A stretch of 52,139 nucleotides of DNA from a virus (lineage: Duplodnaviria > Heunggongvirae > Uroviricota > Caudoviricetes): the IMG/VR virus record IMGVR_UViG_2541047752_000007, positions 1 through 52,139 of that record, one strand, 5' to 3'. This document shows, piece after piece, positions 1 to 12,071 of this stretch (its first letter is position 1; each line of letters starts with the position of its first letter). The notes below the pieces were generated by a model. That model ran no database searches and was not told the DNA's origin. It was given only the letters and a program-made list of their open reading frames with translations. The translations under genes and the position numbers were made by a program.

Positions 1-231
1 TTATGTATTATCTTTGGCTGACGTTAAACCAATCTGATCAAAGAACTGCATTACGTCCTGATAGCGGTACATAACGCCACGCCCGGTACCAAGTACATCA
101 ACAGGGGCCGGGAACGGAGTTCCGTTCCGTTCCCACTTTTTACGCCATAAATAAAACGTTCCCCTGCTAATTCCCCCCAGCATACGGCAGATGGCAGGGC
201 GACTAAGAAGAATTGTCCCGGTTTTATCCAT
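1..231 (-). CDS. AlpA/excisionase-like small DNA-binding protein
   Basis: 76 aa; GTFYLWRKKWERNGTPFPAPV resembles the AlpA/Xis HTH core; last gene of the leftward operon at the prophage edge. Confidence 0.5.
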   Translation of the reverse strand: MDKTGTILLSRPAICRMLGGISRGTFYLWRKKWERNGTPFPAPVDVLGTGRGVMYRYQDVMQFFDQIGLTSAKDNT

Positions 232-886
232 TATTCACCCCCGTGTATTCAACGTGTCCTATACATCCGTCTATAATAGCTTGCGCCATATTGCGATAAT
301 CGCACGAAAATTCGTTGTCGCGGTTAAAATCAATTTCTTTTGCAGCATCTTCACCGATAACCTTAGTAGCAAGTGCAAACGCAATTTCAGCCAGTATTTT
401 TTCTTTCGGATCTACATACAACTTATGAGCGAAATGCTTCCATTCCCCGGCTTGTTCAAAATCAGGCGCATCCATTTCTACAAAAAGAGCAAGGCGATCA
501 CTTATATACTTGTATTTCAGAATAACATATTTCCGACCATCGACAGGATCTAGAAGCTCAAGCCATACTCCGCATGGAGGCTTTTCTCCTGCCATCCATT
601 CCGTAACTTCTGGCGTATCGCAATCATGCCGCTCATCTTCGATTAATTCGTCAATGATTTCACTTTCTTTGTTCATGCCATCATCATCTTTATTAGATAA
701 ATTGGCATATTTATCAAACTTCCAGCTTGCCGCCATAACAGAATAAGTGCCGCGATCAGCGCGAACACCAACTAAATAACATGATCCAAAATTATATTCT
801 TCCCTGCATGTCGATACTTCAAACGATGGGTAGCATTCAGGGTTAGTGCGATGGCTAATCACACCGATTGCTTTTGATTTACTCAT
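224..886 (-). CDS. hypothetical phage protein
   Basis: 220 aa acidic ORF, start overlaps the downstream xis-like gene; no recognisable motif. Confidence 0.4.
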   Translation of the reverse strand: MSKSKAIGVISHRTNPECYPSFEVSTCREEYNFGSCYLVGVRADRGTYSVMAASWKFDKYANLSNKDDDGMNKESEIIDELIEDERHDCDTPEVTEWMAGEKPPCGVWLELLDPVDGRKYVILKYKYISDRLALFVEMDAPDFEQAGEWKHFAHKLYVDPKEKILAEIAFALATKVIGEDAAKEIDFNRDNEFSCDYRNMAQAIIDGCIGHVEYTGVNNG

Positions 887-900
887 TTGTTTATCCTCAA

Positions 901-1077
901 TTATGCCACTGGTACATCGTCAACTTTAATAAAATAATGTGGATGATTTCTAATATCTCTCAGGTAGTAGCACTGACACTCTCGCCACTCATTAGCCGCG
1001 CGATTAAGATAAAACACATTACCATTTTCTACCTTGTAATAAATCCCGGTCGGTTTAGCTTTAAAATACTCAACCAT
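901..1077 (-). CDS. hypothetical small protein (58 aa)
   Basis: Hand-translated MVEYFKAKPTGIYYKVENGNVFYLNRAANEWRECQCYYLRDIRNHPHYFIKVDDVPVA; ATG shares a base with the ninB stop; below ORF-track cutoff. Confidence 0.3.
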   Translation of the reverse strand: MVEYFKAKPTGIYYKVENGNVFYLNRAANEWRECQCYYLRDIRNHPHYFIKVDDVPVA

Positions 1078-1508
1078 TATTGCCCCCAGCGTTTTATAAA
1101 TTCCTCGTTTAATTTTGTATCACCTGACCACTGAACGCCATGCTCAGCGCCGAACGAGTAGATCAATTCGATTAGTTCACTGAATTCTGATTTACTCATT
1201 CGACTTGTAGATGTTCCCAATACAACGAAGCCGGATTTATCCAGATTAGGCACGACGCCATATTTTTTAAGCCCGGCGGTGAATACCGCTTTCCAGTCTT
1301 CCGGCGACAGCTTCTTACCGTACCAATTAACCTGATCACTAATGTCGGTTAGCAACGCCCATAGAAGGCTATTTTGGCTTAGCGAGCGGGTTTTCTCCTG
1401 GATGGTAATTATCAGCGGGCTTTTGCTATCAGGCTGGATCTCTCTTATCTGCCTGATAGCGTTTTCTTTTACGGCGTCGTTTACTATTTCAAATCTAATT
1501 TGCCTCAT
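1077..1508 (-). CDS. ninB: NinB/Orf-family recombination protein
   Basis: 143 aa; SQNSLLWALLTDISDQVNWYGKK and VVPNLDKSGFVVLGTSTSRMSKSEFSELIELI align with remembered lambda NinB. Confidence 0.75.
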   Translation of the reverse strand: MRQIRFEIVNDAVKENAIRQIREIQPDSKSPLIITIQEKTRSLSQNSLLWALLTDISDQVNWYGKKLSPEDWKAVFTAGLKKYGVVPNLDKSGFVVLGTSTSRMSKSEFSELIELIYSFGAEHGVQWSGDTKLNEEFIKRWGQ

Positions 1509-1702
1509 AATACACCGTTACTGTTTTTCCACTGCGCCCGCGCATACATGATCGCCTGCAAAGAAATTAGACGTGAGCTTGTCATGAAAGCGCTTTTTAA
1601 GTATCTCATATCAACCACAACAGGTTTATCAGGATCGTCACCGCGCATGTATTCCGCAATAGTGCTAAAGTCTTCAATGGTTAAATCTAACTCCTTATTC
1701 AT
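1505..1702 (-). CDS. hypothetical protein
   Basis: 65 aa ORF, 4-nt overlap with ninB start. Confidence 0.35.
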   Translation of the reverse strand: MNKELDLTIEDFSTIAEYMRGDDPDKPVVVDMRYLKSAFMTSSRLISLQAIMYARAQWKNSNGVL

Positions 1703-1711
1703 GATCGCCCC

Positions 1712-1918
1712 TCACACAATACGCATTGTGTTTCGTAATTCACCGCGCAGCACCCGCAGTGCATCACGCATTGGTACAAAAACCCGGTTAAATTTTACGT
1801 GTTTATATTTCCGCATCAGTGGCGGTGTATACACCTTTGCGTCGTATACTTCCCACGGATAATAAACGCGCGTATCGTCAACAAACGTTTCAACTGAATA
1901 AAAGATTACCCGTATCAT
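1712..1918 (-). CDS. hypothetical protein
   Basis: 68 aa ORF in operon context. Confidence 0.35.
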   Translation of the reverse strand: MIRVIFYSVETFVDDTRVYYPWEVYDAKVYTPPLMRKYKHVKFNRVFVPMRDALRVLRGELRNTMRIV

Positions 1919-2472
1919 AATTCCAACCCCGTTTCACCGTTAAGTTTTTCGATCTCAAATACTGGTTTATCCGGCAGCAGGCCGTTATTTTTCCGGTATT
2001 CATTCAGGCGGCTGTCAAAATCAAACGCGAGATCATTAGCGTGACCGAAGCGCCCAGGTTTAAACAGTGAGTAAAAATTAAGGCCGTGCTTATTGGTGTC
2101 TATGCAAAGCGTTTCATCCAGTACCATTAAACGCAGCGTGCGCGACAGGTAATTCCACGGAATACCAGTTTCCGCGCTAATGTCACGCATACGCTTTTTA
2201 ACGCTGTAGTCACTAAATAACGATGCCACACGATCGCGACGTTGTGCATACAAATATTTAATTCGATAGCCAAGCAACCTGCGGCGAGGTCCGAAATATG
2301 TATATACACGCTCGACAATGCCAGTGTCGATTAAGTGTTTAATTGTCTCAGGCAAACATCCAGCTTCGTCATATTCCGCTGATAATCCTGTTTTCTGGCG
2401 TAACTGGTGCATTGTGTCGATGCCATCAAGTTCAAGGATATTGATAATTTTTGCTTCAAGTTCAATGCTCAT
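1915..2472 (-). CDS. hypothetical protein, start chosen at MSIELEAK
   Basis: ORF track 1915-2508; internal ATG at 2472 has a GAGG RBS 9 nt upstream; immediately downstream of helicase. Confidence 0.4.
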   Translation of the reverse strand: MSIELEAKIINILELDGIDTMHQLRQKTGLSAEYDEAGCLPETIKHLIDTGIVERVYTYFGPRRRLLGYRIKYLYAQRRDRVASLFSDYSVKKRMRDISAETGIPWNYLSRTLRLMVLDETLCIDTNKHGLNFYSLFKPGRFGHANDLAFDFDSRLNEYRKNNGLLPDKPVFEIEKLNGETGLEL

Positions 2473-2551
2473 TGTTTTTCGCCTCGTTTTAAGCGCGAAA
2501 ACAGCCACTAGAAAGCGGTCAACTTTCCGGTAAGCCGTTTGCTCAAGTTAA

Positions 2552-3973
2552 TTAAAAAGATGCGTTGCTCTGGCTGTTTCGTGGGGAGAATCGACTTGCC
2601 GCCGGACGTTGTTGCATTGACTGAATGCAAGCGGACGCCGCGCGGGCCTGGTTGCATGGGATGATGTTGCCGTTATCGTCAAACCGCTGGTAAACAGTCC
2701 CCGTTTTCCCGTGACGGTTTTTTGAAACGATGATCTCCATATATTCGCGGGCAACCGATTGTTCGTTGTAGTAGCCGTCGCGGTAGACCATGATGATCCG
2801 GTCTGCGTCCTGTTCAAGATTACCGGAATCACGCAGATCAGAATTGTTCGGGCGCTTGTTCGGTCGTTCCTCAACGCGGCGGGATAATTGCGCCAGTGCC
2901 GCCACTGGCACGCGCAACTCTTTCGCCATCATTTTCAATGACCACGACAATTGCCCTACGGCGAGATCATGACGTTCGGCCTTAGCCAGTTTCATTAACC
3001 CGATATAGTCAATCATCACCATCCCCAGGTTAGGATGGTCCTGTTTCATCCGTTCGACGGTGGCGCGTATTTCCTCGACCGTTAACTGCGATGCGTCAAC
3101 AATCCACACATCGAGATCGGCAAGGGCACTCATTCCCTGGGTGACGTGCGCCCAACCTTCGTCATCCAGTTTTACCGGATTACGTAGGCAGTCGGTTGAT
3201 AAATTACCAGCGCCAGCTATAGCGCGTTCAGTCATCTGATCGAGTGACATTTCAAGCGTGAAGAACAAAACGCCAACCCGCTGATCTTTACTGCCAGGGT
3301 AAGGGCGCTCAGCAGCAGCGCGGGCAATCGCCAGCGCCAACGCAGATTTACCAGACCCAGGGCGTCCGGCGAGAAGTACCAAATCAGTAGCGTTAATACC
3401 GCCTAACATTTCGTCGAGCGGTTCTATCCCTGTTTTGATGTTGTCAGAATTGACACCGCATTCCATGCGCTTGCTTAAAACCTCTGTGTATTCCTGTACC
3501 GCATCGCGCAACAGAACAGGAATGATCTTGTCTTTAGTTGCCTTTAATTTTGAATACCGGGAATCAAAATCTTTCATCGTCTCTTTGACGACTTCAAGCG
3601 TCCCCGTTTCCAGCTTGTAGCGCATGTCGTCGATTAGTTCCAACATCTGCCTACGCTGGTGTTCTTCACGTAGTAGCTGTGCGTACCCTTTCAGGTTGGC
3701 AGCAGAAGGGCACGATCGCGCCGTTTGCATCAGCGGAACAAAGTTTTCATTGCCAATCTCATCGCCAACCAATAACGCGTCGATAAGATTCCTGTTTCTG
3801 GCTTGCGCCCGGATAATTTCAAACGCCCGCTTATACAGCGGAATAGTGAACACTTCAGGATCTAGTGTAGCGAGAACATCTTGCGCGTTAGGAGTGAGGC
3901 CGCCTAATAGCAGCCCGCCGATAACTGACGCTTCACGTTCCTGCCGTAGTGAGTTTATTTGCTCAGTTACCAT
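2552..3973 (-). CDS. DnaB-like replicative DNA helicase
   Basis: 473 aa; Walker A GRPGSGKS, IIVSKNRHGKTG and other DnaB C-terminal motifs; GGAGGT RBS; about 30 aa C-terminal extension. Confidence 0.9.
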   Translation of the reverse strand: MVTEQINSLRQEREASVIGGLLLGGLTPNAQDVLATLDPEVFTIPLYKRAFEIIRAQARNRNLIDALLVGDEIGNENFVPLMQTARSCPSAANLKGYAQLLREEHQRRQMLELIDDMRYKLETGTLEVVKETMKDFDSRYSKLKATKDKIIPVLLRDAVQEYTEVLSKRMECGVNSDNIKTGIEPLDEMLGGINATDLVLLAGRPGSGKSALALAIARAAAERPYPGSKDQRVGVLFFTLEMSLDQMTERAIAGAGNLSTDCLRNPVKLDDEGWAHVTQGMSALADLDVWIVDASQLTVEEIRATVERMKQDHPNLGMVMIDYIGLMKLAKAERHDLAVGQLSWSLKMMAKELRVPVAALAQLSRRVEERPNKRPNNSDLRDSGNLEQDADRIIMVYRDGYYNEQSVAREYMEIIVSKNRHGKTGTVYQRFDDNGNIIPCNQARAASACIQSMQQRPAASRFSPRNSQSNASF

Positions 3974-3991
3974 TATGTCATTACCTCCGGT

Positions 3992-5110
3992 TTACAAAAT
4001 GGAATATTCAGGGTAATAAACAAAGCGCCCAATTTCCCCATGATCCGGGCTGTAAATAATCACCGCTGCCAGACGCCGCGACCGCCAGCCGCCATTAGTT
4101 GAATATGCGTCTTTGCCAGCTAATGTGCCGTGGTGCTCAACTATTCCAAGTGATGTTTCAACAACTGATTGATGGTGCAGATGTCCAGTGTGAGCGTAAA
4201 CAGCCACAGACCTCCCGAAATCCTCCCGCCAGTCAGATACGCAAGCCGACAATAAATTTTCCGGCTTTTTGATAGTGTGCCCGTGGTGGTAAGCAAGGAA
4301 TGTTTTGCCGTACTGTGTGTGGTGGACGATAGCAGGGGACACATCAACAGTTACGCGCGGTTCATCTTCGTAAAAAGCCGCCAGCGCCGCACGTAGCCAA
4401 ATCATGCCAGACTGATCGTGATTGCCTGATAGTACCTGGATTTCAATATCCTTATGATTTAACAACATCTTTCCTACCGCCAGACGTACCGCTCGGATCG
4501 CTACATAGACAAGTTTTGCATAGCGTGAATCGCAATCCAGTACGTGATTGCTTGATGGCGTAACTGGCAACAGCCCGTCAGTGTGAAGAACATCCCCACC
4601 GAGAAGCAAAACAGCTTTTTCAGACATCGGCGCAGCGCCCACCGCGTAGTCAAAGAATTCATTCAACACGCGTTCAGCGATCCCAGTGTCGTAGCTCTCG
4701 CCGCATTCAGCTTTATGAGCAAGCGCCCCGATATGCAGATCAAATACCGGATAAAGGGCCAGGCTTTTTTGAAAATCAATTTCAGGCACTGGCACGGCCT
4801 CCGCGCGTGGTATTTCTTCCGTGAATGCGTCGCGGGCAGCTTCCATTAGCCTTTCCATTTCATCACGGTCACGGGCAGTTTTAATCCAGCGCATGACCGT
4901 ATTACCAGCCTTATCGACAAGAACAGATTCACCAGTAATGCCAAAACCAGGCGCGCGACGCGTTGATATTAAACCGCGTTTCGCCAGTTTTGCGCCTAGC
5001 CGCTCGACGTTGCGTTTTGACATGCCATATTTTTCAGCGATCTGCTTGTACGTTAAACCGTTGTTATATTCAGCGATCAATTGCTCATCGCTGATTTTTC
5101 TTTGCGACAT
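3992..5110 (-). CDS. HTH domain fused to calcineurin-like metallophosphoesterase
   Basis: 372 aa; N-terminal LTYKQIAEKYGMSKRNVERL HTH; phosphoesterase motifs FDLHIG, GGDVLHTDG, SGNHD, YHHGH, HTGHLHH. Confidence 0.6.
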   Translation of the reverse strand: MSQRKISDEQLIAEYNNGLTYKQIAEKYGMSKRNVERLGAKLAKRGLISTRRAPGFGITGESVLVDKAGNTVMRWIKTARDRDEMERLMEAARDAFTEEIPRAEAVPVPEIDFQKSLALYPVFDLHIGALAHKAECGESYDTGIAERVLNEFFDYAVGAAPMSEKAVLLLGGDVLHTDGLLPVTPSSNHVLDCDSRYAKLVYVAIRAVRLAVGKMLLNHKDIEIQVLSGNHDQSGMIWLRAALAAFYEDEPRVTVDVSPAIVHHTQYGKTFLAYHHGHTIKKPENLLSACVSDWREDFGRSVAVYAHTGHLHHQSVVETSLGIVEHHGTLAGKDAYSTNGGWRSRRLAAVIIYSPDHGEIGRFVYYPEYSIL

Positions 5111-5143
5111 AATGTTATTTCCTCATGTTTACATTTTGTATAT

Positions 5144-5866
5144 TTATTGACAACAAACAATCTCTTTATATGTTTCTTCTACCATGTCGAATACTTCCGG
5201 CCTGTAATAAAAAAATTCAGTGCTACCATCAAACTTAACAGGGAAGTTTATTTTATAGTCACTGAAAGCATCGTGCATTTTGCTTTCTATTTCCTGCATA
5301 ATCTCAGTAGGCCCATTCCATGTTTTAACTACCTGTAAATCAGTCAGCCTTACACCTGCCTTACGAGCACTTTTAAATACTCTGTTCCTCCTTTCGTTCT
5401 CTTTTACGCTTACACCAATTTTCATTTGTGTAGGCACTTCAAGATCATCAACCATGATGTAAAGTTTTCCGTTGTAGTGTGATAAAAACCCGTATTTAGC
5501 GCATTTCGGGCAACCGCGCCCGCTCTTAATGTCTCTAGGTTTAGCCGACCACTCATGATCACAAACCTTGCAGCGGCATAATACTTTTGTACTGTTATTA
5601 ACTATTTCAACCAGCACTTCAATATCAGGATTAACCTTAGCAATAGCCGATATTTGTTCTTCATGCGATAACTTCATATTCCCAGCGCATTTCTGGCAAC
5701 CACGTCCATATTTAATATTGCTAGGTGTAGCCGACCATTCATGGTTACAAACTTTGCAGCGACATAATACTTTTGTACTGTTATTAACAATTTCCCCTAA
5801 CACTTCAACATCAGGATTAACTTTCGCGATAGCTGCAACTTGTTCTTCATGTGTTAACTTGCGCAT
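5144..5866 (-). CDS. T5orf172 (GIY-YIG-like) domain protein with duplicated N-terminal zinc ribbon
   Basis: 240 aa; two copies of HEEQxAAIAKVNPDxEVLxEIVNNSTKVLCRCKVCxHEWSA...GRGCxKCA; C-terminal GKLYIMVDD...KIGVS...TEFF matches T5orf172 pattern. Confidence 0.5.
   Translation of the reverse strand: MRKLTHEEQVAAIAKVNPDVEVLGEIVNNSTKVLCRCKVCNHEWSATPSNIKYGRGCQKCAGNMKLSHEEQISAIAKVNPDIEVLVEIVNNSTKVLCRCKVCDHEWSAKPRDIKSGRGCPKCAKYGFLSHYNGKLYIMVDDLEVPTQMKIGVSVKENERRNRVFKSARKAGVRLTDLQVVKTWNGPTEIMQEIESKMHDAFSDYKINFPVKFDGSTEFFYYRPEVFDMVEETYKEIVCCQ
5490..5866. repeat. intragenic tandem duplication, about 180-bp unit x2
   Basis: 5570-5700 and 5750-5870 are near-identical (e.g. gcagcggcataatacttttgtactgttattaac vs gcagcgacataatacttttgtactgttattaac). 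Confidence 0.8.
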
Positions 5867-6005
5867 CGCTCCAACTCCTTAAGAACATCATGCGCGCTAC
5901 AACGCAAAAACCCACCGCGACACCCGTTTGCACAGGTTGCAGTGTCTTATTGCGTCAGAGACGCCATCAGGTGGCTAATTTTCGATTTACAGAATGGTAG
6001 GTAGG

Positions 6006-6107
6006 TTATGGATTGATTAGCAGGTACAGACCGCCGAACAAGGCGACGTTAACAGCGATTGCCGCAGCGATGGCAAAAGCCAGGGCGAAAACGTGTTTAC
6101 CGTCCAT
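6006..6107 (-). CDS. small hydrophobic peptide (33 aa, one predicted TM helix)
   Basis: Hand-translated MDGKHVFALAFAIAAAIAVNVALFGGLYLLINP; GAGAGGA RBS about 8 nt upstream; below ORF-track cutoff. Confidence 0.35.
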   Translation of the reverse strand: MDGKHVFALAFAIAAAIAVNVALFGGLYLLINP

Positions 6108-6240
6108 TTTAAAATCCTCTCTGTAACGCTCTATAACGAGCTAATCGCAAAAAGGTAAGCAAGTGTAGCACCACATGCGATTTAGCTCGCTGGTGAGGTT
6201 GTTTTGTGGGTAATTTTGGATTTTTGCGGATCGTGATTGG

Positions 6241-7293
6241 TCAAAGAACGCCAGCGCGCGTATCACGTAGCGTTTTTGGTTTAAGCAGGAAATCAAGTGT
6301 CGCGGTGAAGCCATCGCCGAAGTAAAAATCTGAAGCCGTGTTTTTGAACGTTTCGAAGTAGGCGACAAAGCCGTTAATGCTTTTGTCTTTCAGGTAGTCA
6401 GTGAACGCATAGATCTTGCGTTCAAGATCCCGATCCAGTTCGGCAGGTGGTAACAGGCCGTCAAACGTGCTGTTAAATGCTTCCACCACGTCGGCAGCGT
6501 TTACAGTGGCTGACAGTTTGCGCCATTGTTCAGCATCAGTCAGATACCCATCAAATTTAGTTACCCGGCAAATGTTGATAGGCTTAGGTACTCCACCACG
6601 GCTACGCCATTGGGTTAAAGCCCACTCAATTACTAACGTGATCTCATTCTCCGTATACGCTTTACGTGTTTTTGTTTCTGTCAGTAGTTCTACGAATGGC
6701 TTAGCATCACGACATTTGCATCCTGCCTTGTCGTTGTAGAAGGCAAGGCAACGCAATGCCGCTTCGTTTACGCCATCCTGATTGACCATTTTTTGTTCAT
6801 TTTCGACAATACACGAAGTGTATATATCTTTTTCTCTTTCTTTTTCTACTTCTAATTCTAATTCATGACCCTTTCCTGACCCGGTCATGACCCTATCATG
6901 ACCTTTTTGTGTTGGATTGATTAACTTTTCTAATTTTAATTGCTCCTTCGCTGTGTTTATGGCGGCCCTGTAAGCGCTTTTAGAAGTCATTGATTGGTCC
7001 AGCCTTTTCAATAACTTTAAACAAGTTATGTGGCCTTGAGAACATTCAAACAAACCAATTTCGATGAAGTATTTCATCATTTCTTCTATACGTTTTTCAG
7101 TAGATCCGACGTTTCGAGCAATGATTCTCGCGTCATGTCGTAGGTCAAAAGTCAGATTGTGCTGATCTACGTCATAAGTTATTAGTTCGAGGCAATACCA
7201 ATAAAGCCCGTACCCTTCCAGGCCATAATCTAACAAAACGTTTTGAAGTTTTTCATCGCGGTTCGCATCGCTGTCATGCTTAAACCACTTCAT
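6241..7293 (-). CDS. phage replisome organizer / replication initiation protein (DUF4373-like N-terminus)
   Basis: 350 aa; N-terminus MKWFKHDSDANRDEKL...GLEGYGLYWYCLELI typical of Lin1244-like N-domain; GGAGGG RBS. Confidence 0.6.
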   Translation of the reverse strand: MKWFKHDSDANRDEKLQNVLLDYGLEGYGLYWYCLELITYDVDQHNLTFDLRHDARIIARNVGSTEKRIEEMMKYFIEIGLFECSQGHITCLKLLKRLDQSMTSKSAYRAAINTAKEQLKLEKLINPTQKGHDRVMTGSGKGHELELEVEKEREKDIYTSCIVENEQKMVNQDGVNEAALRCLAFYNDKAGCKCRDAKPFVELLTETKTRKAYTENEITLVIEWALTQWRSRGGVPKPINICRVTKFDGYLTDAEQWRKLSATVNAADVVEAFNSTFDGLLPPAELDRDLERKIYAFTDYLKDKSINGFVAYFETFKNTASDFYFGDGFTATLDFLLKPKTLRDTRAGVL

Positions 7294-7296
7294 AGA

Positions 7297-7554
7297 TCAT
7301 CCCTCCGGCAACATCACTACATAGACATCACTGAATGCATCAAGACGACAAACAAATCCTTTATCCATTAACGCGGCGAAGGCATCATGTACCGTATGAA
7401 CAGGAAGTTCACACATTGCGGCTACTTCTTTGCGTGATGCATCATGTACCCGTCCTTTGTTATCTGCCTTTTCAGCCAGAGCCATTAAGACAAGTTTTTG
7501 AATCGGGCTATTAAGTTTTACGTTCCATGCTTTACTAATCATGTTTATACTCAT
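7297..7554 (-). CDS. winged-helix DNA-binding protein (HTH_36-like)
   Basis: Start moved to ATG 7554 (GGAGA RBS); KLVLMALAEKADNKGRVHDASRKEVAAMCELPVHTVHDAFAALMDKGFV resembles HTH_36; first gene of leftward operon. Confidence 0.5.
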   Translation of the reverse strand: MSINMISKAWNVKLNSPIQKLVLMALAEKADNKGRVHDASRKEVAAMCELPVHTVHDAFAALMDKGFVCRLDAFSDVYVVMLPEG

Positions 7555-7662
7555 CGCATTTTCTCCTATGGTTAGAGTGAACGCGCGGGCGGGCATCCCA
7601 TTAGCATTAGATAGCAGTGACTGACCGCTCAACAGATCCCGCCGTTGCGTGATATTTGTTTT

Positions 7663-7696
7663 TCGCTTCGCAGCGACACCGGATTTTTAAAGAGCA
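7663..7696 (-). promoter_or_regulatory. candidate nut-like site (boxA plus boxB hairpin), leftward operon
   Basis: Minus strand reads TGCTCTTTAAAAATCCGG then hairpin TCGCT-GCGA-AGCGA; resembles remembered lambda nutL CGCTCTTAAAAATTAA plus boxB. Confidence 0.35.
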
Positions 7697-7821
7697 TAAG
7701 GTAAGTGCCTTTTTGTGCCTTCCGTTATCTTTTTCCTTGCGTCTTTGCAAGTATGGCCTTACCTTGTCTGCAAGTTTACAAAATGGAATTTTAAGATCAA
7801 GGCTTAAAATACACGTTTTGT

Positions 7822-7850
7822 GACTTGCATCAAACTTTTTGAGGTTATAG
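7822..7850 (+). promoter_or_regulatory. weak PRM-like promoter for the repressor gene, possibly leaderless mRNA
   Basis: GTGACT-N18-TTATAG ending about 9 nt before the cI ATG at 7860; no SD upstream of ATG. Confidence 0.3.
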
Positions 7851-7859
7851 GGTAGCGAC

Positions 7860-8507
7860 ATGAAAACAAAATGGTATGACTTAGCAAAGCAGCTCATGCG
7901 GGCGCAGGGCATGAGCCAGGATTCGCTCGCGGATCGTATGGGGATAACTAAAGGCGGCCTGTCACACTGGCTGAACGGTCGCCGAGAGCCAAATCTTGAA
8001 GATATTGCGCGGATTATGCGCGAGCTTGGTCGTCGGCAGTTTACTGTTACACATGATGGCATGGTCATTGATGATTCTGTTTCTAATACACTTCAGGCCG
8101 TGCCGCCGCGTGATTTAGGTAGTTACCCGGTTATTGACTGGAAGGACACAGTAAACAATATGGATGACGCAAGGCGTTCAGCATTACGACACGTTACGAC
8201 TAGCGTTATTTGTTCAGATGACAGTTACTGGCTGGTTGCCAAAGGTGAATCAATGAACGCGCCGCAGGGGTTGAGCATCCCGGCGGGGACGATGATACTT
8301 GTGGACCCGCACGCGCCAGCTATTGACGGCAAACTGGTTATAGCCCAGCTTGAGGAAGGGCAGATACCGACGTTTAAACAGTTGATTATTGATGGAGGTC
8401 AAAGGCTTTTACGTTCGCTCAATCCGCTGTATCCGCCAATCCCTATGAATCCAGAATCAAAAATTATAGGCGTGGTGGTTGATGCGAAGATCGTAAACCT
8501 GCCATAA
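7860..8507 (+). CDS. CI-like phage repressor (HTH_XRE plus S24 LexA-like peptidase)
   Basis: 215 aa; N-terminal HTH MSQDSLADRMGITKGGLSHWLNGRR; C-terminal GESM (Ser) and VVDAK (Lys) autocleavage dyad. Confidence 0.85.
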   Translation: MKTKWYDLAKQLMRAQGMSQDSLADRMGITKGGLSHWLNGRREPNLEDIARIMRELGRRQFTVTHDGMVIDDSVSNTLQAVPPRDLGSYPVIDWKDTVNNMDDARRSALRHVTTSVICSDDSYWLVAKGESMNAPQGLSIPAGTMILVDPHAPAIDGKLVIAQLEEGQIPTFKQLIIDGGQRLLRSLNPLYPPIPMNPESKIIGVVVDAKIVNLP

Positions 8508-8512
8508 ACATT

Positions 8513-8538
8513 AGCCGCCGAATGGCGGCTTTTCTTTG
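8513..8538 (+). terminator. rho-independent terminator after repressor gene
   Basis: agccgcc-gaat-ggcggct stem-loop followed by tttctttg. Confidence 0.5.
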
Positions 8539-8630
8539 CCTGGAAAACACCAAAACGTAAACAGAAAACGTTATTTATTATTTAAATATCAATGGCATAT
8601 AAAATATTTTAAAAAAGTATACAAAATGGA

Positions 8631-8659
8631 TTGACTCGATGTTTTACGGGGCGTATATT
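8631..8659 (+). promoter_or_regulatory. strong sigma70-like promoter (pL-like) for rightward early operon
   Basis: TTGACT-N17-TATATT; immediately preceded by the recurring tatacaaaatgga motif. Confidence 0.55.
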
Positions 8660-8701
8660 GCGAGTCAAAGGAAGGGCGCAGGTAACAAAAGCAACTTCCT
8701 G

Positions 8702-8718
8702 GCACTTTAAAAATCAGG
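8702..8718 (+). promoter_or_regulatory. candidate boxA-like element in 340-nt leader
   Basis: GGCACTTTAAAAATCAGG shares CTTTAAAAATC with the minus-strand boxA-like site at 7679-7696. Confidence 0.3.
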
Positions 8719-9007
8719 CTTAACACCTTGTCAACCGTGGAGTAACTCCCCGATGGGGGACCGAAAGCGGCACTGATAACAAGGCGCATGGGGTGTTTAA
8801 AGCGTTACATCCCCCACGAAACCGCACGCAAGGCGACGAGTCAGCTTGCTTGGAGTGAGCAAGGTCACGCCGGGAACGGCGATGATTGCGGGATTAGTTG
8901 AAAGATGTTAAGCCGCTCATTAACAATCTGGTCAGCCGCTGGAAGTGCGGCAATTAACGAAGATGATTTTTTATTAAGTATCATCAAGGATATACGGAGA
9001 TCAGATT

Positions 9008-9298
9008 ATGAGCGTTACAATTATATATGGTAAATGTGATAGCAAAATGAATGCCAGGGAACGCAGAAGGATAAAAAGAGAAAACGAAAGAAAATCATCA
9101 CCTGCAATCAATAAAACAGACAATGTGGATAAAGCTATTCGATTTGCAAACGAGGAAAGATGCAAACCAAATAGCATTAAAGAACGTCGCAAAGGATCAG
9201 TAAAATGGTATACGGAAAATGAAAGCGGCAGCTACTACCACGCAACGCAACCACGCCATTTAGGGGAAAAACCCCTGGATAAAGTCCGCTACCATTAA
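9008..9298 (+). CDS. basic protein with arginine-rich N-terminal motif, possible N-like antiterminator
   Basis: 96 aa; NARERRRIKRENERK resembles an arginine-rich RNA-binding motif; first gene after promoter and long leader. Confidence 0.35.
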   Translation: MSVTIIYGKCDSKMNARERRRIKRENERKSSPAINKTDNVDKAIRFANEERCKPNSIKERRKGSVKWYTENESGSYYHATQPRHLGEKPLDKVRYH

Positions 9299-9328
9299 TA
9301 CAAAATGTAAACATCCGGAGATGACATT

Positions 9329-9451
9329 ATGGTTATTCAGGCGCTTCAATTCAAACTGGCAGTAGCGGAAATGCTTCACGATGCCGAAATGTGGAGCGCC
9401 GCGAATAAAGCCTTATACATAGTGTTAACAGCACGGGAGATTAAATGGTGA
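9329..9451 (+). CDS. hypothetical small protein (40 aa)
   Basis: Hand-translated MVIQALQFKLAVAEMLHDAEMWSAANKALYIVLTAREIKW; GGAG RBS; stop overlaps erf start. Confidence 0.3.
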   Translation: MVIQALQFKLAVAEMLHDAEMWSAANKALYIVLTAREIKW

Positions 9452-10089
9452 AAACAGAGTTACATAAAAAGCTATGGACGATTCAGCAAACGCTGAACGC
9501 GCCGAAAAATCAGCGTAATAATTTTGGTGGATATAATTACAGGTCGGCGGAGGATATTTTAGAGGCGGTTAAACCACTGCTTCAAAATATCACGCTGACT
9601 GTTAGTGATGAAATTGTCCTGATCGGCAATCGCTATTATGTGAAAGCAACGGCGACGCTAAGCGACGGTGAAGACGTAATAGCGGTAACTGCTTATGCCA
9701 GGGAGGAAGAAAACAAGAAGGGTATGGACGCCAGCCAGCTAACAGGAGCAACATCAAGTTACGCGCGTAAATATGCTTTGAACGGTTTATTCTGTATAGA
9801 TGATGCTCGCGATCCTGATACTGATGCTTACGCGAAGCAGACAGGCCAGCAGCCGCGACAACAGAAAAACCCACCAAAACAACAACCGCAGCAGAAGAAA
9901 GCGCCGCCAAATCCTGATGAAGTATTAGCACGTTTCTGTGATGCAGCAGCGAAAGCGCAGGACGCTAACAAGCTGCGTGAAATATTTGGCAAATGCTGGA
10001 AATTACTACCGGAAGGATCGGAACATCGAATCAAGGCAAAAGATGTTTATGACATCCGGGTCGCAGAGCTTAACGGGGAGATGGGTTAA
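9445..10089 (+). CDS. erf: ERF-family single-strand annealing protein
   Basis: 214 aa; NFGGYNYRSAEDILEAVKPLL and overall ERF-like pattern; followed directly by ssb. Confidence 0.8.
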   Translation: MVKTELHKKLWTIQQTLNAPKNQRNNFGGYNYRSAEDILEAVKPLLQNITLTVSDEIVLIGNRYYVKATATLSDGEDVIAVTAYAREEENKKGMDASQLTGATSSYARKYALNGLFCIDDARDPDTDAYAKQTGQQPRQQKNPPKQQPQQKKAPPNPDEVLARFCDAAAKAQDANKLREIFGKCWKLLPEGSEHRIKAKDVYDIRVAELNGEMG

Positions 10090-10508
10090 TGAGTTTGAAT
10101 TCAATTACGCTGGGCGGGAATATCGGAAACGACATGGAAGTTCGCTACACGCAAAACGGTAAAGCGATTGGTAGTTTTCCGTTAGCTGTAACGAATGGCT
10201 ACGGTGATAACAAGCGGACAATGTGGATCACTTGCCTGGTATTTGGTGAGCGTGCGGAAAAATTAGCGCCACATATCCGCAAGGGTGGAAAAATAGTGGT
10301 AAGCGGTCGCCTGGATGTTCGGCAATATGACCGGAACGACGGCACGAAGGGGACTGCGGTAGAAGTGGCGGTTAATGAATTTGAATTCATGAATGTTAAC
10401 CAACAAGGCCAGCAGCAAGGACAGCAGCAGAAAGCGCCGCCGCAGCAGCAGAATAATAACGGGAATAATCCGCCTCCGATGGACTTCGACGACGATATTC
10501 CTTTTTAG
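10089..10508 (+). CDS. ssb: single-stranded DNA-binding protein
   Basis: 139 aa; OB-fold N-terminus, Gln/Gly-rich linker, acidic tail DFDDDIPF. Confidence 0.9.
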   Translation: MSLNSITLGGNIGNDMEVRYTQNGKAIGSFPLAVTNGYGDNKRTMWITCLVFGERAEKLAPHIRKGGKIVVSGRLDVRQYDRNDGTKGTAVEVAVNEFEFMNVNQQGQQQGQQQKAPPQQQNNNGNNPPPMDFDDDIPF

Positions 10509-10524
10509 AATCAATGTGTTAGCG

Positions 10525-10803
10525 ATGAGTGATTATCTAAAACCGCCACCGCAACCACGAACAAAAGAGCAAGTATTAAAAGAAGCCCGCGATCAAATCG
10601 ATCGCGGGCTTTTTTTATGCGGCACGGCAGCGGATCGAATGGCGAAAAGATTTAGTGACCTGTACGCGAAGCAAATCTGGTTTGACAACTGGCGAGCGAG
10701 TTCTTACCCGCTACAGAAAACTGATGATATGCAGTGGCCTGAATATGTTGATCCACGAATGCGCAAATATCGCGGGCGTATGGGCAAGGTTATTAACGAT
10801 TAA
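10525..10803 (+). CDS. hypothetical protein (ORF spans a terminator-like hairpin)
   Basis: ORF-track frame 10393-10803 with first ATG at 10525; contains hairpin 10585-10617. Confidence 0.35.
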   Translation: MSDYLKPPPQPRTKEQVLKEARDQIDRGLFLCGTAADRMAKRFSDLYAKQIWFDNWRASSYPLQKTDDMQWPEYVDPRMRKYRGRMGKVIND

Positions 10804-10815
10804 TGAGGTATTACC

Positions 10816-11067
10816 ATGACAGCTACAACATTAAGCGAAAATAACGGGCGCGGTTTTCAGGGGACTGCGGAAACCTCAGACGATGGTGATGTATTTGTCG
10901 AATTCGGTGGCGGTAACTATGAATTCGAAACGTCGGCGGGCTGGCACGATAAATGGCCTTTCCCGACGCGCAAGGAATTAAGCGAACGTAAATCATTTGG
11001 CGAAGATGCCGAACGGCTGGCTAATAACAAATGGCTTGATAAGTTCATTGCGGAGGGTGGCAAATGA
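10816..11067 (+). CDS. hypothetical protein
   Basis: 83 aa acidic ORF. Confidence 0.4.
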   Translation: MTATTLSENNGRGFQGTAETSDDGDVFVEFGGGNYEFETSAGWHDKWPFPTRKELSERKSFGEDAERLANNKWLDKFIAEGGK

Positions 11068-11171
11068 AAAAGATTGCAATGTTATCCGCCGCCGTTGCTG
11101 TGGCGGCTGTTTACCTTAGTGCGTCACTCTATATCACTGTGGCGATTGTTAAGCTGATTACTGACATGTGA
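11064..11171 (+). CDS. small single-TM peptide (35 aa)
   Basis: MKKIAMLSAAVAVAAVYLSASLYITVAIVKLITDM; GGAGGGTGG RBS; ATGA overlap with upstream stop. Confidence 0.4.
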   Translation: MKKIAMLSAAVAVAAVYLSASLYITVAIVKLITDM

Positions 11172-11178
11172 GGTTTAT

Positions 11179-11295
11179 ATGCGAGTCGACAAAAATACTG
11201 TCAAGGCTGTTTTCTGTGTGGTCGCTTTCGTCTTCATGGTGGTAATAGCTGGCGCGACTGCGGCAATTATTAGCTATATCGGCGGGGTGATGTGA
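11179..11295 (+). CDS. small single-TM peptide (38 aa)
   Basis: MRVDKNTVKAVFCVVAFVFMVVIAGATAAIISYIGGVM; GAGG RBS. Confidence 0.4.
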   Translation: MRVDKNTVKAVFCVVAFVFMVVIAGATAAIISYIGGVM

Positions 11296-11567
11296 TGCCA
11301 TTCATGAATATCAAAACGGGTGATCTGGTCGTGCTCCCGGAATACCGTAAAGACCCTGGTCTGGTTGTGCTGAATAAGACATATAACGATCTTGAGCGTC
11401 CGATCCTGGTTAAATATCTGGACGGAACAATTATAGAGCCGCGCTTCTTTGACAAGATCGAACTGAAGGCCCGTAATGTTCGCGTTAAGCCGTTCCGGGC
11501 TTATGTTGAAGACCACTGGCGGAAATTGTTCGCCGGACTGAATGGGATGTTCGGCGTATGGCTATAA
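11295..11567 (+). CDS. hypothetical protein
   Basis: 90 aa ORF, ATG at 11295. Confidence 0.4.
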   Translation: MPFMNIKTGDLVVLPEYRKDPGLVVLNKTYNDLERPILVKYLDGTIIEPRFFDKIELKARNVRVKPFRAYVEDHWRKLFAGLNGMFGVWL

Positions 11568-11749
11568 AATTGGTAAAAGTTAAAGATTTAAAAGGCGGCG
11601 AAAAGATCCGTACGTGGTATGGGTATAAATTTATCATAGCTGCCTTTTCTTTTGGGCCTGGTGGTCAGGTAACATTATTTGACGAGGAAGATGATGAGGT
11701 GGGTCAATGGCATCTTGAACAATATGTTGAGGTGTTAAATGAAAATTAA
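11558..11749 (+). CDS. hypothetical protein
   Basis: 63 aa ORF. Confidence 0.35.
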   Translation: MAIKLVKVKDLKGGEKIRTWYGYKFIIAAFSFGPGGQVTLFDEEDDEVGQWHLEQYVEVLNEN

Positions 11750-12071
11750 ATTCCATAAAGCATATGATAGCGAAACAAACAAGCTATCACTATTTATCGA
11801 ATTCGAACGCCGGATCGTGGTTGTGCCCTGGGCGCGGCGCTTCAATGACGCTGGCGGACGTAGACAATTCGCGGTCGATATGCTGTTACGCGGCTGCGGC
11901 CTTATGCGTCCGCTATCTGATTTAAAACGAATGATGCCGGGATCGTTCGGTCAGATTGATGAAATAGAAATAAGCCCGGAAGAACTGAAACGGGAGCGTG
12001 ATTTATTCCTTTCAAGCGAAGGAAACCCGTTTAATTCAGAAACTGAAATGAAATGGCATCACCCACTATAA
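11739..12071 (+). CDS. hypothetical protein
   Basis: 110 aa ORF. Confidence 0.4.
   Translation: MKIKFHKAYDSETNKLSLFIEFERRIVVVPWARRFNDAGGRRQFAVDMLLRGCGLMRPLSDLKRMMPGSFGQIDEIEISPEELKRERDLFLSSEGNPFNSETEMKWHHPL

Follow-up and report, generated by a model that had tools for sequence, protein, structure and literature searches.

Several enzymes of the calcineurin-like metallophosphoesterase (MPE) superfamily act on DNA. Mre11/SbcD is a nuclease, and DP1, the small subunit of archaeal PolD, is a 3'-5' proofreading exonuclease. In archaeal and eukaryotic polymerases, the B-subunits have an MPE fold and act as a scaffold. Pseudomonas putida has an MPE nuclease of about 200 aa encoded in an Lhr-MPE operon. 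Among phages, lambda carries in its early region the gene for NinI, a Ser/Thr protein phosphatase of the same superfamily. Phage T5 encodes A1, a predicted metallophosphatase. Host DNA degradation requires A1, and A1 alone suffices for it; the structural neighbors of A1 are DSB-repair nucleases and polymerase proofreading subunits (bioRxiv 10.64898/2026.04.02.716235). A1 has 556 aa, and its DNA-binding partner, A2, is a separate protein.

The phage family PHROG 704 is large and neglected. It is a core gene of the Drexlerviridae, which include therapy candidates and laboratory contaminants. In this group, it is a persistent gene that stands immediately before the lysis cassette in 508 of 522 genomes, and polynucleotide kinase or dNMP kinase genes often come next (PMC13164509). 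The database names for the family are inconsistent: hypothetical, Rrf2 (family) regulator, oxidoreductase, putative phosphoesterase, DNA polymerase II small subunit, and DNA repair exonuclease. PGAP uses "hypothetical protein" in Escherichia coli genomes, and a re-annotation of phage TLS calls gp66 a "proof-reading exonuclease" (PMC11447400). There is no Pfam or NCBIfam model for the family. The literature that we searched contains annotation-level mentions only, with no biochemical or genetic experiments on any member and no escape mutants or defense triggers.

We analyzed a PHROG 704 gene in a 52,139-nt stretch of phage DNA (the window, positions 1 to 52139), which looks like a complete or nearly complete genome of an mEpimmI-type (mEp044/mEp010-like) temperate phage. 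The gene lies on the minus strand at 3992 to 5110. It encodes a 372-aa protein that is 94% identical to mEp044_10 of phage mEp044, its best match. mEp044 belongs to the mEpimmI group of Nus-dependent temperate coliphages (PMC11893012). Residues 4 to 368 of the protein align with positions 2 to 387 of the 390 in the phrog_704 profile ("DNA repair exonuclease"; E = 1.1e-137). Judged by this match, the protein is not new but belongs, over its full length, to a phage family that is very common and already annotated. A tblastn search found homologs in 2048 of 50,697 phage records. The hosts are mostly Escherichia, Klebsiella, Salmonella, Vibrio, and Campylobacter, and the family extends to Rhodobacter and Ruegeria phages. 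An exhaustive HMMER search yielded 4362 clusters (50% identity) at E ≤ 1e-3 and 925 at E ≤ 1e-30. An earlier note on this DNA had presented the fusion of a helix-turn-helix (HTH) domain to a phosphoesterase as a special feature of the replication module. However, the fusion is the standard architecture of this very large family. For this window, the result is mainly one of annotation, an ordinary PHROG 704 member in an mEpimmI-type phage.

Domain organization and catalytic motifs

The protein begins with a three-helix HTH (residues 8 to 44; 4979 to 5089, minus strand), in which the modeled helices span residues 8 to 16, 21 to 28, and 32 to 44. Pfam matches to HTH families (HTH_23, Rrf2, and Sigma70_r4) were sub-threshold only, covering residues 10 to 58 with an E of about 1e-3. 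The family profile matched HTH structures of the GerE/LuxR type (E = 0.011 to 0.03), and HTH Pfam families are precomputed for several relatives. A linker module follows (residues 57 to 97; 4820 to 4942, minus strand). It is modeled as a β-hairpin with strands at 57 to 65 and 71 to 79 and a helix at 82 to 97. To assess conservation, we aligned 141 sequences, each representing a 50%-identity cluster; they are 29 to 57% identical to the query. The hairpin residues W75 and K77 are kept in 134 and 110 of the 141 representatives, respectively. All 141 relatives have 115 to 202 residues before motif I, and therefore the whole family has the HTH-containing N-terminal module. The computed pI is 9.6 for the N-terminal module versus 6.0 for the MPE domain. 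Among relatives with less than 70% overall identity, the N-terminal domain is 24 to 57% identical to that of the window protein, versus 32 to 70% for the MPE domain.

The earlier note had proposed a domain search. It returned the full-length PHROG 704 match, and the Pfam and NCBIfam searches gave no Metallophos match. Neither Metallophos (PF00149) nor Metallophos_2 (PF12850) matched the window protein or its T1 homolog, ST16, even at E ≤ 0.1, and the searches of NCBIfam and, with the single sequence, of the PDB found nothing for the enzyme part. The missing match does not contradict the fold, because the family is too divergent for the Pfam models. We obtained an AlphaFold2 model from a 50-sequence alignment, with a mean pLDDT of 82 and a pTM of 0.71. 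In the model, residues 114 to 365 (4016 to 4771, minus strand) form the β-α-β-α-β sandwich of the calcineurin-like MPE superfamily and make up the catalytic core, with no C-terminal capping domain. All five motifs of the superfamily (DxH, GDxx[D/H], GNH[D/E], H, and GHxH) are present. Motif conservation and the modeled structure together establish that the MPE domain is real.

The motifs, all encoded on the minus strand, are strongly conserved. Motif I (D124-L-H126; 4733 to 4741) is invariant in all 141 representatives. Motif II (G172-D-V-L-H176-T-D178; 4577 to 4597) is of the GDxxH type, with D173 kept in 141, H176 in 137, and D178 in 133 of them. It is followed by a family-specific loop, T184-P-x-S-x-H-x-L-D192-x-D194-x-R196 (4523 to 4561), in which T184 is kept in 141/141, D192 in 136/141, D194 in 133/141, and R196 in 138/141; residues 192 to 195 have a low pLDDT in the model. 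Motif III (G229-N-H-D232; 4415 to 4426) has N230 and H231 in all representatives and D232 in at least 133 of the 141. The motif IV region reads Y-H-H276-G-H (H275-H276-G-H278; 4277 to 4291), with H276 in 141/141 and G277 in 139/141. Motif V is G309-H-L-H312 (4175 to 4186), where H312 is found in all 141, G309 in 139, and H310 in 135. Thus, D124, H126, D173, N230, H231, H276, and H312 are the residues that never vary. Because the metal ligands are invariant across 141 diverse relatives, selection is evidently preserving the activity of the enzyme. The degeneration of the active site on alignment that the earlier note had feared was not seen, and the motifs that it listed for the HTH fusion are correct for I, III, IV, and V. 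Motif II, however, is GDxxH and not the GDxxD that it had read.

Comparison with known enzymes and predicted activity

The window protein has the nuclease-domain fold of Mre11/SbcD with the DxHxG and GDxxH motifs, and we take its motif I (DxH[ILV]G) and motif II (GDxxH) to be the Mre11-type form. We searched PDB sequences with family profiles of 50 or 141 sequences. The sole MPE proteins found were Mre11/SbcD of T. maritima (E = 0.2, motifs I and II) and the "Nuclease MPE" of P. putida (E = 1.2). These matches are suggestive but not significant, and the best E for profile similarity to Mre11/SbcD is thus 0.2. There are also clear differences. The window protein has an N-terminal HTH module instead of the capping domain of Mre11/SbcD, and its MPE core reaches residue 365 of 372, leaving no room for a further domain of this kind. 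No ORF of the size or type of a Rad50/SbcC partner is present in the window, and none adjoins the gene in T1, Henu8, Jerseyvirus, Vibrio, or Rhodobacter phages. Because it has neither the capping domain nor this partner, the protein is not an Mre11/SbcD ortholog.

The other nucleases are also imperfect counterparts. Compared with DP1 and the polymerase B-subunits, the window protein has no DP2-type polymerase partner, and its model contains no complete OB domain; the phages concerned mostly have no polymerase of the DP2 type of their own. The P. putida nuclease is much smaller, has no HTH, goes with another helicase family, and shows distant structural likeness only. T5 A1 resembles the window protein in being a phage MPE and in having the same structural neighbors, and its DNase-type phenotype offers a precedent for function. 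We rejected homology between the two, because the hhalign probability was 0.4% and A1 was absent from the top 50 matches among viral structures in BFVD. Therefore, A1 is a functional analogy only.

Another reading is a protein phosphatase (Ser/Thr/Tyr) with a fused DNA-binding domain, which would be a NinI-like transcriptional or developmental regulator. The window protein belongs to the superfamily of lambda NinI, and in several prophages NinG and NinB are encoded near the gene, in a nin-like region. We rejected a NinI-like phosphatase, because the window protein has neither the GDxVDRG and GNHE motifs of the PPP type nor its closest fold similarity to PPP enzymes. We consider a protein phosphatase of any such kind very unlikely.

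We suggest that the protein is a stand-alone, DNA-tethered, binuclear-metal phosphodiesterase of the nuclease-type (Mre11/SbcD/DP1-like) MPE branch and a predicted DNA nuclease, a reading to which we would give an even chance. It is the best fit because the binuclear-metal site is constrained, nuclease-type MPEs are the nearest structurally, the motifs are Mre11-like, the basic HTH module is universal, and the neighboring genes (see below) belong to DNA metabolism and nucleotide salvage. In such a nuclease, D124, H126, D173, N230, H276, H310, and H312, which are conserved, would bind two metal ions, and H231 and the Mre11-like H176 of motif II would assist hydrolysis of the DNA phosphodiester. 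The basic N-terminal module, with its HTH and β-hairpin, may keep the enzyme on DNA, and the enzyme would work without a Rad50/SbcC partner. It might trim or open DNA ends and structures in phage replication and recombination intermediates. Alternatively, it might degrade host DNA and feed nucleotide salvage; this would be an odd role for a temperate phage, and it counts against the nuclease model. A demonstration of DNA-tethered nuclease activity and of the target DNA would give a core phage gene a function. In T1-like phages, it could account for the degradation of host DNA or the processing of ends as well.

The MPE domain could instead be a small-molecule phosphodiesterase. In that case, its substrates would be nucleotides or cyclic (oligo)nucleotides that act as second messengers, their breakdown would counter defense or remodel nucleotide pools, and the HTH would serve in regulation or partner binding. 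However, a universal basic module containing an HTH is hard to square with an enzyme for soluble metabolites, and the forms of motifs I and II are Mre11-like. To our knowledge, the anti-CBASS and anti-Pycsar enzymes described so far have different folds. The PADLOC defense-system HMMs gave no match at E ≤ 0.01, and the gene belongs to the persistent core, not to the variable accessory genes (PMC13164509). We therefore regard this alternative as unlikely. A role as a defense protein was rejected, because there was no PADLOC match and virulent phages have the gene in their core (PMC13164509).

The early operon of the window

The minus strand carries, in order, a winged-helix gene, an O-like initiator gene, a zinc-ribbon/T5orf172 gene, the HTH-MPE gene, dnaB, several small genes, and ninB; cI (7860 to 8507) is divergent from this early operon. 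The first gene (7297 to 7632) encodes a small winged-helix protein that resembles the N-terminal domain of initiators (phrog_4617, "replication initiation protein"; 4e-22). The O-like replication initiator gene (6241 to 7293) matches Lin1244_N, phrog_20981, and phrog_345 ("replication initiation O-like"). Within it, a repeat search located a candidate ori (6863 to 6903) of four tandem 11-bp iteron-like repeats, TCATGACCCnn. The units are TCATGACCCTT, TCCTGACCCGG, TCATGACCCTA, and TCATGACC, and they are partly palindromic. By analogy with lambda, where the ori iterons lie within gene O, these repeats are probably origin iterons.

The gene directly upstream of the HTH-MPE gene (5144 to 5866, minus strand) is a variable accessory gene that resembles homing endonucleases (Pfam DUF4379/CapR/T5orf172; phrog_681, "endonuclease"). 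It encodes two treble-clef zinc ribbons, and these modules precede a T5orf172/MUG113 (GIY-YIG-like) domain. The gene has an internal 177-nt duplication, with 5498 to 5674 being 82% identical to 5684 to 5860. Only 11 of 32 related viral contigs have it upstream of the MPE gene, and therefore it behaves like a mobile insert of the homing-endonuclease type.

Downstream of the HTH-MPE gene is a gene for a DnaB-family replicative helicase (2552 to 3973, minus strand; Pfam DnaB_C, 2e-76; DnaB N-terminal domain, 7e-12; phrog_19, 2e-110). The spacer between the two genes (3974 to 3991) reads ACCGGAGGTAATGACATA on the coding strand and contains GGAGG, the ribosome-binding site of the helicase gene. It is exactly 18 nt long, as the earlier note had said, and the gene does lie within the replication module, between the initiator gene and dnaB in the early operon. 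A scan of 2300 to 8200 found fewer promoter-like sites and no more terminator-like sites than in shuffled sequence, and it revealed no convincing internal promoter or terminator. We infer that the gene is transcribed together with the initiator and DnaB genes, in an early rightward operon, after infection or induction.

A 197-aa ORF with no Pfam or PADLOC match lies directly downstream of dnaB (1915 to 2508, minus strand). mEp044 and E. coli prophages likewise have an ORF at this position, and its product is a candidate helicase accessory protein. In related prophages, the integrase gene is just past ninB. The module order is unlike that of lambda. The genes for an Erf-type annealing protein (9445 to 10089) and SSB (10089 to 10508) are on the plus strand, opposite the early operon. 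No exonuclease of the lambda-Exo/RecE type was seen among the listed ORFs of 1 to 12000.

Linkage to dnaB and gene neighborhoods in other phages

To count linkage, we used 80 viral contigs that encode relatives of the protein, of which 32 are mEpimmI-like (at least 89% identity) and 48 are T1-like or Webervirus (58 to 68%). DnaB is encoded directly downstream in all 32 mEpimmI-like contigs. The spacing in 29 of them fits the 18-nt gap (tblastn gap of 19 to 22 nt), and the remaining three have an insertion of about 550 nt. In contrast, a DnaB homolog within 5 kb of the gene is absent from all 48 contigs of the T1-like or Webervirus group. Among about 17 diverse proteobacterial prophages, two or three have DnaB within 5 kb; these prophage counts are approximate, since crude ORF calling on GC-rich loci missed the gene in a few. 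Of 5426 complete E. coli genomes, 35 contain the pair of helicase and MPE genes. Adjacency to dnaB thus characterizes a single phage lineage and not the protein family. Because the linkage is absent in most lineages, it is no evidence for a helicase-linked function, and the functional clue that the earlier note had drawn from it carries little weight. The place directly upstream of dnaB would be a consequence of how genes are ordered in the mEpimmI lineage and not a sign of a function dedicated to the helicase.

These counts bear on whether the HTH-MPE protein is a helicase loader or replisome accessory factor. Such a protein would bring the phage DnaB encoded next to it to the origin, or load it there, and so stand in for lambda P, perhaps as a scaffold. 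However, DnaB is rarely nearby outside the one lineage, and T1 uses a DUF3987-type helicase that is encoded elsewhere. We found no similarity to lambda P by hhalign or to DnaC-type loader PHROGs, and there was no Pfam or NCBIfam match to a loader; the homology to a known helicase loader that the earlier note had feared is therefore absent. The strictly conserved catalytic residues argue for an enzyme and not a scaffold. A P22-type initiator and DnaB-like pair functions without a separate loader. We rejected the loader role on the grounds of lineage-confined linkage and missing loader homology, and we rate it as quite improbable. The earlier note had left a choice among nuclease, replication accessory factor, and regulator. 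Nuclease is the best of these options, and an accessory role is unlikely for the same two reasons.

A broader version of the nuclease reading is conceivable, although we think it unlikely. PHROG 704 might be a class of Rad50-independent, HTH-guided, Mre11-like nucleases with a core phage function. In T1-like phages, this could be the long-unassigned degradation of the host chromosome. In the mEpimmI lineage, the nuclease could be recruited to the origin, where nicking or processing of DNA would let DnaB load without a loader of the lambda-P or DnaC type.

Gene neighborhoods differ among the lineages. T1 ST16, annotated as a putative phosphoesterase, is a full-length homolog that shares the HTH-linker-MPE architecture and the invariant residues with the window protein. 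Upstream of its gene are those for an SF2 helicase, a VRR-NUC nuclease, and Dam; an HNH gene and the lysis cassette come after it. The gene is therefore placed before the lysis cassette in T1-like phages but before dnaB in the window. In Jerseyvirus, the gene stands alone amid tail genes on the opposite strand, and in Vibrio and Rhodobacter phages it is near lysis genes. In the diverse prophages, its neighbors include genes for lysozymes, NinG, DnaB, a dATP/dGTP diphosphohydrolase, and the small terminase. The lysozymes, NinG, diphosphohydrolase, and small terminase mark a location at the early/late boundary.

Proximity to lysis genes could point to a sequence-specific transcription factor, for example, a regulator of the early/late switch upstream of the T1-like lysis genes, with the MPE as a sensor or co-factor module. 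The resemblance of the N-terminal domain to sigma-70 region 4 and to the LuxR/GerE HTH is in keeping with this idea, as is the position before the lysis cassette in the 508 Drexlerviridae genomes (PMC13164509). However, a terminator stands between the gene and the lysis genes in T1, and the gene is far from the lysis genes in the window. The catalytic residues are also far better conserved than the HTH, as the identity ranges of the two domains indicate. We consider it very doubtful that the protein is such a factor.

In four phage lineages that are unrelated, an HNH endonuclease gene lies directly beside the MPE gene, at 7001 to 8645 in locus L007, 40822 to 42510 in L011 (T1), 4513 to 6104 in L002, and 4920 to 6717 in L004. 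The MPE protein of L007, an E. coli prophage, is a mosaic. Its N-terminal domain is 86% identical to that of the window protein, and its MPE domain is only 46% identical. This mosaic is consistent with co-conversion at the domain boundary, driven by a homing endonuclease.
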